A stretch of DNA of 38,076 nt. Source: a virus (Duplodnaviria; Heunggongvirae; Uroviricota; Caudoviricetes). Location of the stretch: positions 1 through 38,076 of the IMG/VR virus record IMGVR_UViG_2690316068_000004; one strand, 5' to 3'. The notes under the pieces were generated by a model. That model saw only the letters and a program-made list of their open reading frames with translations. It made no database searches and was not told the origin of the DNA. Shown one piece after another: positions 25,881 to 28,854 of this stretch (positions are counted from its first letter, which is position 1; each line of letters opens with the position of its first letter). A program made the position numbers and the translations under genes.

Positions 25881-26358
25881 TATTCCTACGGGTCTTATTC
25901 TGACAATATATCCTGTGTTCCAGACTGCCACATCACCACATCCTGTGCCATTATCTGACTCACATTACATACATCGCATCGGGATACAGTAGTAGCACTT
26001 TCTGTAATACAGCTTCCTGTTTCTTCCACCATCGCACCGGGATAAACCCGCGAATCATTAACGCGGTAAAAACCCGGTGTGCATCGTTTTTAATTATTCC
26101 CGCACACTCACGCAGAAGGAATTCCCCCGTCGGGCTACGGTCATGGTTAATGCGGGAATACGGCGACGATACAGCGCAGCTAAAAGGGTAATGGACGGAT
26201 AGACCGGTTTATTTCATTCCACAGGATTCTGAGTGTCCCCAACTTCCTCCAATAGTCTGAGCCCACCTGTGTAGTTTTAATTTTCATCAATCCATTTAAC
26301 TATCGTTTAATTGTTGTCACATAGGATTCTGCCGTTTTTAACAATGCAGGATAATAAG

Positions 26359-26652
26359 ATGAAAAAAATGTTGTTTTCTGCCGCTCTGGCAATGCTTATT
26401 ACAGGATGTGCTCAACAGACGTTTACTGTTGGAAACAAACCTACAGCAGTAACACCAAAGGAAACCATCACCCATCATTTCTTCGTTTCGGGAATTGGGC
26501 AGAAGAAAACTGTCGATGCAGCAAAAATTTGTGGTGGTGCAGAAAATGTTGTTAAAACAGAAACCCAGCAAACATTCGTAAATGGATTGCTCGGTTTTAT
26601 TACTTTAGGCATTTATACTCCGCTGGAAGCGCGTGTGTATTGCTCACAATAA
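26359..26652 (+). CDS. bor: Bor lipoprotein (serum-resistance moron)
   Basis: MKKMLFSAALAMLITGCAQQTFTV... matches lambda Bor; opposite strand to the lysis genes as in lambda. Confidence 0.9.
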   Translation: MKKMLFSAALAMLITGCAQQTFTVGNKPTAVTPKETITHHFFVSGIGQKKTVDAAKICGGAENVVKTETQQTFVNGLLGFITLGIYTPLEARVYCSQ

Positions 26653-26683: not shown

Positions 26684-27145
26684 CTATCTGCACTGCTCAT
26701 TAATATACTTCTGGGTTCCTTCCAGTTGTTTTTGCATAGTGATCAGCCTCTCTCTGAGGGTGAAATAATCCCGTTCAGCGGTGTCTGCCAGTCGGGGGGA
26801 GGCTGCATTATCCACGCCGGAGGCGGTGGTGGCTTCACGCACTGACTGACAGACTGCTTTGATGTGCAACCGACGACGACCAGCGGCAACATCATCACGT
26901 AGAGCATCATTTTCAGCTTTCGCATCAGCTAACTCCTTCGTGTATTTTGCATCGAGCGCAGCAACATCACGCTGACGCATCTGCATGTCAGTAATTGCCG
27001 CGTTCGCCAGCTTCAGTTCTCTGGCATTTTTGTCGCGCTGGGCTTTGTAGGTAATGGCGTTATCACGATAATGATTAACAGCCCATGACATGCAGACGAT
27101 GATGCAGATGAGCAGAGCGGAGATAATCGCGGCTACTCTTCTCAC
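26684..27145 (-). CDS. Rz: Inner-membrane spanin Rz, GTG start
   Basis: (V)[44 protein letters not shown]... matches lambda Rz; GTG at 27143..27145 preceded by GGGGGA. Confidence 0.85.
26743..26925 (-). CDS. Rz1: Outer-membrane lipoprotein spanin Rz1, embedded in Rz in the +1 frame
   Basis: 60 aa [24 protein letters not shown]...[15 protein letters not shown], lipobox and proline-rich as in lambda Rz1. Confidence 0.85.
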
Positions 27146-27676
27146 TGATCTATCCCCCAACAGGCTAAATGCGCTTTCCTGGTCACGACGAATAACCTGT
27201 CCGTAGCAGTTATTTGAACGTGTGCGGCAATCACGCCCACCGTCCTTAATCCACCAGCGAATCGACTCACAGGCACCTTTACGATCACCGGCATTAAGCC
27301 GCTTATAAAACGTCGACGGGAAACACTTACCGGGGCCAATGTTATAGGGACAAAATGACGCGATACCTGCTTTTTGTGGCTCGGTCAGTGGAACTTTTAT
27401 ATTACGCTCCACCCATGCCAGCGCCTTATCCCGCTCAATGGCGTTAACCTGGGCGCATTTTTCCTTCGACAGTTTCATGCCCGGAATAACAGGTTTACCC
27501 TCCACCACAGTGGCACCCCGGCAAATGGTCCATATGCCGGAACCATCGCGGTATGCCGTTGTGTGGTTACCCTCTTTTTCGTCCAGAAACTGGTCAAGTA
27601 TCTGAGGAGCAGACGCGCCTGCGGCAATCAGCGCCAGAACAGCAGCCGACAGGCCGTATCTGATTTTTACGTTCAT
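27142..27676 (-). pseudogene. R: Phage lysozyme (GH24-type, signal-anchor N-terminus), apparently frameshifted near the 3' end so the ORF reads through into Rz
   Basis: The 330-aa ORF is lysozyme (aa 1-177) plus Rz (aa 178-330) with no stop; the expected C-terminus ...ACWGIDQ and TGA at 27142..27144 lie in the +1 frame; the span is 535 nt, one more than 178 codons. Confidence 0.7.
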
Positions 27677-27810
27677 GGATATTTATCAGGATTTATCGGT
27701 TTCTGAACCCTGGATATGTTAAGCATTCAGCCCGTCAGTGGTAGGACACTGGCGCTCTGGTTAAGGATTATGGGGGATGCTGGCTGAGCTACCCCATCTG
27801 AGGATTTGAT

Positions 27811-28050
27811 ATGCAAAAAGAAGTTTTTATCAATATTACAGCTGACTGCTCATCTCCTGCATCAACAGCAAAAGAAATTGAAGCTCTTAAATATATGATT
27901 ACAGTAATATTTTCCGTATTGGACCAGAATGAAAAAAATGGAATCATTCATCAATTAAATGAACATGTAAATAATCCATATATCAAAAGCAATCTGGAAA
28001 TGCTGCTACCAATGAAAGATATTGGAAAACCAACTGAAACAAAAGGCTAA
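27811..28050 (+). CDS. Hypothetical 79-aa protein, AT-rich moron inside the lysis cassette on the opposite strand
   Basis: ORF with GAGGA RBS 8 nt upstream of the ATG; AT-rich; no recognised homology. Confidence 0.5.
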   Translation: MQKEVFINITADCSSPASTAKEIEALKYMITVIFSVLDQNEKNGIIHQLNEHVNNPYIKSNLEMLLPMKDIGKPTETKG

Positions 28051-28361
28051 CAACCAGTAATTGAGTTATCTGAACTGTTAATTTTTATGGTATACCGCGC
28101 CTCTGAACAGGGGCGCGTTTCTGGCAACAGCTCGTCCCCTTCACATAACCCGGCAGCAACATCCAGGAAGACCTGTCTGATGCTCCTTCTGGCTGCAGCC
28201 TCATAAAACTCCAGCGCGGCACCTTCAACACGGTCCAGCGAGATGTCCAGGTCAAAAATTTCACCGTCAAAGCGTTTTTTGTCCCGTAATGCTAAAGTTA
28301 CCGTAACTTTATTCTCAAAATTGCGGATTCCTTTCACAATCATTTCATAGTATTGGGCCAT
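28047..28361 (-). CDS. Hypothetical 104-aa protein between holin and lysozyme (possibly YdfR/DUF1327-like; family unverified)
   Basis: Same strand as the lysis genes; starts 5 nt after the holin stop. Confidence 0.55.
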   Translation of the reverse strand: MAQYYEMIVKGIRNFENKVTVTLALRDKKRFDGEIFDLDISLDRVEGAALEFYEAAARRSIRQVFLDVAAGLCEGDELLPETRPCSEARYTIKINSSDNSITGC

Positions 28362-28365
28362 TATA

Positions 28366-28581
28366 TTACTCTCCTCTCGCAGCCTTTCTTCTGTCTTCTC
28401 TGATTTTGAAGTACAGATTTGTCAGATAAGTCAAAAAGCCCAGAACTAGACTTCCCAGCACACCAATTGCAGCCCACTGTGACGGACTGACCTGATCCAA
28501 CCACTGTAAAAACCAGTATCCCGCACTACCAGCGGATGTTCCGTAGGCAATGCCAGTTGAGATTTTGTCCATTGATTTCAT
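28366..28581 (-). CDS. S: Holin/antiholin, phage 21 S21 (pinholin) type with dual-start motif MKSMDK
   Basis: 71 aa [30 protein letters not shown]... with two TM segments; matches S21 as recalled. Confidence 0.85.
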
Positions 28582-28698: not shown

Positions 28699-28774
28699 TG
28701 GTGCTGGTTAACGGACTTGAACCGCCACCCATTCGCTTACAAGGCGACTGCTCTACCATTGGAGCTAAACCAGC
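28699..28774 (-). tRNA. tRNA, predicted anticodon UGU (Thr) from hand folding
   Basis: 76 nt folding as a cloverleaf with GCTC/GAGC D-stem, anticodon loop CTTGTAA, T-loop TTCAAGT, encoded CCA; C at position 14 and a G.A pair at the top of the anticodon stem. Confidence 0.6.
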
Positions 28775-28779
28775 ATGTT

Positions 28780-28854
28780 TGGCGGGACAGCGTGGACTCG
28801 AACCACGATAAGAAGGTTAACAGCCTTCCGTAATGACCTTTATACGACTGACCC
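28780..28854 (-). tRNA. tRNA-Asn (anticodon GUU)
   Basis: 75 nt with anticodon arm GAAGG-CTGTTAA-CCTTC, T-arm CGTGG-TTCGAGT-CCACG, encoded CCA; one T.T mismatch in the acceptor stem. Confidence 0.65.

Follow-up and report, generated by a model that had tools for sequence, protein, structure and literature searches.

A small reverse-oriented gene in the lysis region of an Escherichia coli prophage and the structured leader it appears to share with the reverse morons of HK97 and HK022

Introduction

Morons have been described as independent transcription units, each with its own promoter and terminator and a deviant base composition, that are expressed from the repressed prophage (PMC3594210). 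We describe here a candidate unit of this kind, centred on a 79-residue open reading frame (ORF79) on the plus strand of a lambdoid Escherichia coli prophage (IMG/VR record IMGVR_UViG_2690316068_000004, positions 1 to 38,076; this whole stretch of 38,076 nucleotides (nt) is referred to as the window). ORF79 is an extra gene between two genes, ydfR and a lysozyme gene, that are adjacent in relatives, and its composition differs from that of its neighbours. By composition and architecture it appears to fit the moron description, its promoter and terminator being weak matches.

The closest described systems are the reverse morons of the phages HK97 and HK022, in both of which gene 23 lies antisense between the tail genes I and J. 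The gene is annotated 'reverse moron product' in HK97 and 'srb protein; moron gene product' in HK022, and the 'reverse moron' GenBank notes for the two gp23 products reportedly go back to Juhala et al. 2000 (J Mol Biol 299:27). Like ORF79, these are small ORFs of low guanine-plus-cytosine (GC) content opposite late genes, with promoter-like and terminator-like elements of their own and the same leader, which was found directly upstream of both genes by the covariance model R1 together with BLAST (R1 scores: HK022, 87.5 bits; HK97, which lies outside the training set of the model, 50.9 bits). Unlike them, ORF79 lies not between tail genes but between ydfR and the signal-anchor-release (SAR) lysozyme gene of an S21-type lysis cassette, where it overlaps the convergent neighbouring gene at the stop codon and provides that gene with its C-terminal tail. 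The HK97 gp23 protein is unrelated to ORF79. HK022 gp23 appears to be the nearest named relative, and a distant one: phmmer matched it to ORF79 at an expect value (E) of 5e-8 (24 bits) and to the allele of the E. coli locus L002 at E 4e-9 (28 bits), in a database of only 28 sequences, and a whole-library HMMER search with ORF79 did not return the HK022 gp23 branch. The two proteins share the pattern CxxxAxxAxE[IV]xALK...LxxxxKNxxIxxL, and the Kluyvera and Enterobacter proteins L173 and L178 form a group with HK022 gp23; these three and L168 are distant relatives of ORF79.

A further comparison is with bor/iss of lambda, which, like ORF79, is opposite-strand, AT-rich and self-contained and stands beside the lysis genes; Bor is expressed from the prophage. 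The preliminary description of this DNA had drawn the same analogy, and it holds for the moron architecture and not for the protein. Bor/Iss is a lipoprotein of the outer membrane that has a signal peptide and lipobox, whereas by inspection ORF79 has neither (its N-terminus is MQKEVFINITADCSS, with no hydrophobic signal segment), and the comparison of ORF79 with Bor gave no sequence similarity and no Pfam or NCBIfam match. The region upstream of iss/bor differs as well, in that R1 finds no second copy of the ORF79 leader in the window. The window has an iss/bor lipoprotein gene of its own (26311-26652, plus strand) just downstream of Rz, which makes a second reverse-oriented moron. By analogy only, anti-CRISPR and anti-defence loci also resemble this arrangement, many unrelated small ORFs occupying one slot behind a common regulatory region; the ORF79 cassette differs from them in having no aca-like regulator gene and in its orientation antisense to its neighbours, and a PADLOC search found no similarity of ORF79 to any known anti-defence or defence protein.

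Results

We consider it probable that the segment from about 27677 to 28120 is an exchangeable, autonomous reverse-moron cassette, consisting of a promoter, an 87-nt leader, ORF79 and a terminator, that serves the lysogen and not lysis. The ORF79 unit appears to be autonomous and is compositionally foreign, GC content being 0.27-0.31 across 27800-28100 versus 0.47-0.58 in the flanks (30% for ORF79 itself). The preliminary description had noted an AT-rich ORF with a ribosome-binding site of its own that could not be read from the late operon, and in this it was right: the gene is on the plus strand and has a promoter-like -10 element, a structured leader and a terminator-like hairpin to itself. 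That the promoter is active, when ORF79 is expressed, what the leader does and what ORF79 targets biochemically are inferred. The elements of the cassette are as follows.

27692-27720, plus strand: putative weak sigma-70 promoter, read from the sequence as TTTATC (27692-27697), a 17-nt spacer and TATGTT (27715-27720)
27727-27813, plus strand: structured 5' leader of 87 nt (R1 62.8 bits, E 7e-16)
27727-27732, plus strand: UCAGCC of the leader, 6 nt after TATGTT
27733-27740 paired with 27747-27754, plus strand: leader hairpin 1 (HP1), 8 base pairs (bp)
27770-27775 paired with 27792-27797, plus strand: leader hairpin 2 (HP2), with the loop GGCUGA at 27782-27787
27800-27804, plus strand: Shine-Dalgarno sequence GAGGA of the leader, 6 nt 5' of the ATG at 27811
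27811-28050, plus strand: ORF79, 79 amino acids (aa), predicted reverse-moron gene (phrog_21218 over 79/79 residues, E 2e-57)
27932-27938, plus strand: run of seven A (A7), a frameshift hot spot, in codons 41-43 of ORF79
28004-28050, plus strand: 3' end of ORF79, which persists as the ydfR-lysozyme spacer in common cassette-less prophages
28096-28124, plus strand: terminator-like hairpin of the ORF79 transcript, CGCGCCUC / GGGGCGCG and then UUUCU (RNAfold), inside the C-terminal coding region of ydfR; its GC-rich stem of 8-9 bp occupies 28096-28117

The region shared upstream of the start codon spans about 130 nt and holds, in order, TAnnnT, UCAGCC, HP1, a linker of 10-20 nt, HP2, a Shine-Dalgarno sequence and the start codon. 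The hexamer TAnnnT stands 6 nt before UCAGCC in 25 of 25 leaders, the 17-nt promoter spacer is constant in length and varies in sequence, the HP2 loop carries (A)UGGCUGA(UUA) across the leaders, and a good Shine-Dalgarno sequence is kept in all of them. The RNA structure of the leader appears to be conserved. In an alignment of 21 leaders from nine genera, which are related sequences picked and trimmed by hand and make the result supportive rather than a formal test, 98% of the cells of HP1 are paired and four of its pairs show compensatory changes; the corresponding values are 90% and three pairs for HP2, and 95.7% and seven pairs for the structure as a whole. None of 500 column shuffles reached the observed values, and a slid partner strand pairs in only 29-46% of cells. 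About 30 of the cells hold G.U; read from the opposite strand these would be A.C, and as such the structure would belong to RNA of the plus strand. RNAalifold proposes an additional helix between UCAGCC and GGCUGA (a possible pseudoknot), both motifs being near-invariant, so that covariation speaks neither for nor against it. A search of Rfam 15 with the leader, at E up to 10, matched no family, and R1 finds a single copy in the window and one in each related locus.

Some candidate elements of this region were considered and rejected. A translated upstream ORF in HP2 (AUG GCU GAU UAC CUC UGA, 'MADYL') was not accepted as a general feature because the initiating triplet is AUA in L160, L162 and L177 and the frame is not kept in the ORF79 family; furthermore, Shine-Dalgarno-like purines abut the AUG. 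The MADYL-stop frame is nevertheless seen in HP2 of many leaders (e.g. L005 1560-1585, L173, L170, L167 and L178), and in L170 and L173 it runs up to or over the main start codon, while in L167 and L178 it shares the frame of the main ORF. A boxA-like CGCUCU after HP1 is confined to the ORF79 branch in the alignments, and a sigma-54 promoter was dismissed on the ground that 10 nt, not 11, separate its GG from its GC and the GC is unconserved. In E. coli leaders the putative promoter spacer is flanked by an imperfect inverted repeat, TATCAGG ... CCTGGATA (window 27692-27726); this repeat could be an operator, or just an RNA or DNA hairpin in the 5' region of the lysozyme gene.

At least 15 small low-GC ORFs of enterobacterial prophages, unrelated to one another, stand behind the leader, and the reverse morons of HK97 and HK022 are among them. 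A 21-mer from the lysozyme start codon retrieves 109 viral contigs; the slot after it holds at least eight unrelated plus-strand ORF families of 79-118 aa, each with its own PHROG and no assigned function, one of which is DUF1883, and 41 of the 109 contigs lack such an ORF. Examples are found in REL606, in Stx1 and Stx2 phages and in phage 86. The leader precedes families A-G in E. coli prophages and is also present ahead of HK633_067 and Stx2-phage-86 gp06. Scanning one genome per species for the leader pattern gave 12 loci in Enterobacter, Citrobacter, Kluyvera, Dryocola and Atlantibacter, each heading a different low-GC ORF of 42-91 aa, in addition to three probable chance matches in high-GC organisms. 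A single superfamily for the slot occupants is not supported, given hhalign probabilities below 4% for the pairs H-A, H-B and A-B and a profile iteration that added only H, L168, L173 and L178. One Enterobacter bugandensis chromosome carries three copies of the leader (L165, L174 and L178), each before a different small ORF and presumably in three prophages.

A leader more conserved than the ORFs behind it, preceded by a promoter aimed into the late operon, might also be read as an antisense transcription device, in which transcription from the plus-strand promoter into ydfR and the holin gene damps leaky lysis-gene expression in lysogens, the ORF being incidental. The weak terminator (UUUCU) makes read-through into the antisense strands of ydfR and the holin gene plausible. 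We regard this explanation as very unlikely, however, as purifying selection acts on the ORF frame only (see below), each alternative occupant of the slot is itself a conserved ORF with a PHROG of its own, every leader has a good Shine-Dalgarno sequence, and the tail-region cassettes of HK022 and HK97 have no lysis genes downstream.

ORF79 is coding and under purifying selection. That it is more than a chance ORF follows from its call by the Prokaryotic Genome Annotation Pipeline (PGAP; WP_001168526.1), its full-length match to phrog_21218, its constant length (240 nt, with zero indels in copies that are 80-86% identical) and a ratio of nonsynonymous to synonymous substitution rates (dN/dS) of 0.19-0.28, the lowest of the six frames, the other five giving 0.43-4.95 (three ORF79 alleles, dS 0.35-0.63). 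The preliminary description had named in advance a lack of conservation in related prophages as one outcome that would speak against it, and ORF79 is conserved in them. The identical protein occurs on at least 1000 contigs and the gene in about 102 of 5426 complete E. coli genomes, where most copies are 98-100% identical; a set of 5.8 billion proteins yields only 17 clusters of the family, which come from E. coli, Salmonella, Klebsiella and Serratia. The product is predicted to be a small, slightly acidic, cytoplasmic helical protein, the AlphaFold2 (AF2) model having helices at residues 16-36, 39-50 and 56-70 with a predicted local distance difference test score (pLDDT) of 63. The best matches in Pfam and NCBIfam, DUF1514 (E 0.02) and IraP (E 0.09), are both far under the cut-offs, a protein search of the genome contigs retrieved no relative, and a literature search by protein accession and PHROG number returned nothing. 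One strong whole-library match, P0009 (3389 aa), is an ankyrin-repeat protein with repeated matches to a short DQN[ED]KNG-like stretch and was taken as compositional or repeat inflation.

Several observations weigh against an active cassette that is useful to the lysogen. Most E. coli prophages with the lysis-cassette type of the window are without ORF79, and about one in ten ORF79 copies is frameshifted in the A7 run; taken together, these indicate a gene that is dispensable and often lost. No function is assigned to ORF79 in Pfam, NCBIfam, PHROG or PADLOC, and comparison of its only moderately confident model with solved structures gave no fold match. The promoter, TTTATC-17-TATGTT, matches the consensus at 3/6 and 4/6 positions, which is below the threshold of the consensus scan and went unreported by it, and the T-run after the hairpin is poor in the window copy and also below the scan threshold; it is better in the L002 and L003 orthologues and in HK022, where the gp23 counterpart is GCCGCAGATGCGGCCTTTCTTT. 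Last, in RNA sequencing of strain LF82 and its prophage Perceval, which carries the same lysis module as the window, reads were counted per annotated gene; ORF79 is unannotated and has no entry, and its neighbours are at background (PMC9928086; raw reads, GSE154648). In the same data the DUF1327 gene of Perceval (LF82 1191695-1192009) has 40, 27, 50 and 45 reads versus 7, 14, 13 and 5 for the lysozyme gene (PMC9928086, S1 and S4 tables). Read-through of an ORF79 transcript might add to the DUF1327 reads, should either the libraries or the counting have lacked strand specificity.

One may ask if ORF79 is simply decaying, a relic without present expression or use that hitch-hikes in a few clonal prophage lineages. 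The nearly identical copies in less than 2% of complete E. coli genomes, the commonest related arrangement, in which ORF79 is deleted, and the missing entry in the LF82/Perceval tables are all in keeping with this, as are the frameshifted alleles on about 190 contigs. These include the truncated variants P0006, P0007 and P0008 (48-54 aa; P0007 is on 185 contigs), which end ...NEKMESFIN*, as expected from the loss of one A; the change in A7 length could be simple decay or slipped-strand on/off switching. A relic would hardly be expected, however, to retain a dN/dS of about 0.2 across alleles at dS 0.35-0.63, or to have homologues that are intact and stand behind the same leader in Salmonella, Klebsiella, Serratia, Kluyvera, Enterobacter and phage HK022, and we think this account quite improbable.

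In every locus examined the ORF79 homologue is on the opposite strand to all of its late-gene neighbours. Apart from L162, a further locus with an antisense homologue, the positions are as follows.

E. coli L002 and L003: homologue between the DUF1327 and lysozyme genes, or beside another holin set
Klebsiella L019: homologue between Rz and HNH/terminase
Salmonella L158: homologue between Q and the holin gene
Serratia L160: homologue between the lysis genes and terminase

The GC content of the homologues is 0.33-0.42 versus 0.48-0.51 in their surroundings, and every one of them converges on, and abuts or overlaps, a small minus-strand ORF. In Klebsiella L019 (3866-4742) the homologue and a convergent 150-aa ORF, separated by a bidirectional hairpin, make up a single low-GC insert of 877 bp when compared with phage ST846-OXA48phi9.1. 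The convergent partners differ by genus, the Klebsiella (150 aa) and Serratia (56 aa) partners being unrelated, yet their C-terminal tails are alike (YTIKINSSDNSITG, WSVKLNENGCITTG and CYIKVNQSV), because the codons concerned are antisense to the shared 3' untranslated region (UTR) of the cassette. This origin of the tails suggests that the mobile unit spans from the leader to beyond the terminator hairpin.

The direction of change at this site was judged from the spacer between ydfR and the lysozyme gene, which measures 370 bp with ORF79 in the window and 55 bp in the E. coli locus L004, the two genes overlapping (ydfR/rrrQ) in the K-12 Qin prophage, which has no cassette. The 55-bp spacer of L004 consists of the last ~45 nt of ORF79 and the ribosome-binding region of the lysozyme gene, the counterpart of window 27703-28003 being missing; 465 genomes match the 3' end of ORF79 only, at 80-90% identity, and other cassette-less forms are deletions between the short direct repeats AGTCTTCAG. 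Since the cassette-less spacer retains the end of ORF79, the common arrangement would be a deletion of a ~300-bp cassette and not the state before insertion. The majority arrangement in E. coli thus looks like the outcome of cassette loss, not gain, and a recent insertion of ORF79 into the ydfR-lysozyme junction is not supported.

The neighbouring genes belong to the lysis cassette of the prophage, and 27600-28450 is 100% identical to strain Q5. The coordinates given in the preliminary description for the holin, the 104-aa and 79-aa ORFs and the lysozyme, as well as the gap of about 690 bp, are all exact. The genes are these.

28366-28581, minus strand: class II pinholin of S21 type, 71 aa (PF04971, E 8.6e-36; 'class II holin family protein' in PGAP), first gene of the lysis cassette
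28047-28361, minus strand: YdfR/DUF1327 protein, 104 aa (PF07041, E 1.2e-37)
26684-27676, minus strand: SAR-type lysozyme fused in frame to Rz, a 330-aa ORF (PF00959 and PF03245 in a single ORF)

The lysozyme start codon is at 27676 on the minus strand, leaving 690 bp between the holin and lysozyme genes. The two ORFs described in this gap are both present and are more than mere neighbours: they share 4 nt at their stop codons, and some 25 codons at the end of the 104-aa ORF lie antisense to the 3' UTR of ORF79. Compared with strain Q5 the window differs by two 1-nt indels, an additional A near 27169 and a single base near 26790, and these fuse lysozyme (R) and Rz in frame; in Perceval R (177 aa) and Rz are separate, and PGAP labels the Rz of Q5 'frameshifted'. 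The indels may be homopolymer sequencing errors; alternatively, this prophage may have a defective lysis cassette. An ORF for the Rz1 lipoprotein is nested within Rz (26743-26925, minus strand), and two transfer RNA (tRNA) genes (28702-28774 and 28783-28854, minus strand; tRNA-Thr and tRNA-Asn in the Q5 record) lie between the Q antiterminator gene and the holin gene.

The 104-aa ORF had been taken for an unrecognised insert. It scores 128.4 bits against PF07041 (cut-off 25), with positions 1-90 of the 93-position profile covered, shares 63% identity with K-12 YdfR (b1555), which is encoded between essQ and rrrQ in the Qin prophage, and begins 4 nt past the holin stop, behind the Shine-Dalgarno sequence GAGAGGAGAG. 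As YdfR/DUF1327 genes are common between S and R in such cassettes, and standard there in most E. coli S21-type cassettes, the gene is a regular member of the lysis cassette and not an insert; it would be translationally coupled to the holin gene and made from the late transcript. The K-12 and window proteins share their position after an S21-type holin and their length class, and differ in the C-terminal tail past about residue 72; the K-12 ydfR stop overlaps the lysozyme start, whereas the window has 370 bp with the antisense cassette between the two genes. The DUF1327 family is restricted to Escherichia, Shigella and Salmonella, and its proteins (72-296 aa) align as a conserved core of ~85 residues with tails of widely varying length. 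In the window protein residues 1-85 form this core and the tail from about residue 86 is variable and antisense to the 3' UTR of the cassette; the AF2 model has three beta strands and a long helix, with pLDDT below 50 in the tail. Tails in this family are set by the downstream DNA, that of the window, ETRPCSEARYTIKINSSDNSITGC (28047-28120, minus strand), being the antisense of the 3' UTR and terminator of ORF79. Other forms include a tail-less protein of 72 aa in L035 and one of 268 aa in Stx2 phage 86, with a long extra C-terminal region (L181 1953-2759).

K-12 YdfR was found in 2026, by two-hybrid and co-purification experiments, to bind the catalytic N-terminal domain of RNase E through residues 1-72, and it brings down RNA, as the adaptor RapZ does (PMC13232886). 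This binding is a finding on K-12 YdfR only; in the window protein, residues 1-72 are the conserved part. Given this activity, and a convergent minus-strand ORF next to every ORF79 homologue, one might propose that ORF79 or its leader RNA is functionally paired with YdfR, either with YdfR acting as an RNase E adaptor that directs the enzyme to the cassette messenger by way of the leader hairpins after the late genes have come on, or with ORF79 antagonising YdfR. The 97-aa partner of the homologue in Salmonella and L162 is indeed faintly DUF1327-like (27% identity over 64 aa by BLASTP, pairwise E 7e-5, with a shared VEGxxLExY), but hhalign gives that relationship a probability of 8% and Pfam gives no match, and the Klebsiella and Serratia partners are unrelated. 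Furthermore, the leader cassettes of HK97 and HK022 lie between tail genes with no DUF1327 gene nearby, ydfR of K-12 Qin does without a cassette, and the likeness of the partner tails is accounted for by the antisense reading of the cassette 3' UTR. A functional pair with YdfR is, on this evidence, unlikely.

Discussion

Each of the explanations weighed above, the pair with YdfR, the antisense device and the relic, accounts for less of the evidence than an exchangeable reverse-moron cassette does. As such, it is reasonable to postulate how a cassette of this kind would work. RNA polymerase would start at about 27726-27728, from a weak promoter of sigma-70 type beside the lysozyme start codon and independently of the Q-dependent late promoter; given this independence, ORF79 could be made in the lysogen and directly after infection. 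HP1 and the pairing of UCAGCC with GGCUGA may stabilise the messenger RNA, gate its translation, or both, and transcription would end in the hairpin within the ydfR tail. When Q-modified polymerase later comes through the cassette in the opposite direction, ORF79 would be expected to fall silent through convergent transcription and antisense RNA. The protein most likely binds a host or foreign-phage protein, and would so provide an accessory function for the lysogen.

A further, tentative proposal, which we hold to be possible but doubtful, is that the leader, 80-90 nt long, is an undescribed cis-regulatory RNA for an exchangeable set of reverse morons in enterobacterial prophages, with a possible pseudoknot of UCAGCC and GGCUGA pinning the 5' end of the messenger, that it answers to some factor of phage or host origin (perhaps the RNase E pathway touched by YdfR), and that the products are swapped effectors that protect the lysogen or act against defence systems. 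What may be new here is the shared, covarying leader and the slot for cassette exchange that it marks.

For the window itself the outcome is mostly clarifying, in that the two ORFs appear to be one known lysis-cassette gene and one classical moron. Beyond the window, one structured, covarying leader appears to be common to the reverse morons of lambdoid prophages and their relatives in nine or more enterobacterial genera. The R1 model, or the pattern TCAGCC...GGCTGA, would thereby offer a sequence handle for reverse morons, many of which are unannotated (e.g. in phage Perceval), and the genes behind the leader make a candidate set for functions in lysogenic conversion, exclusion or anti-defence. 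Ultimately, the leader RNA may explain how reverse-moron genes come to be expressed inside late operons that are silent.

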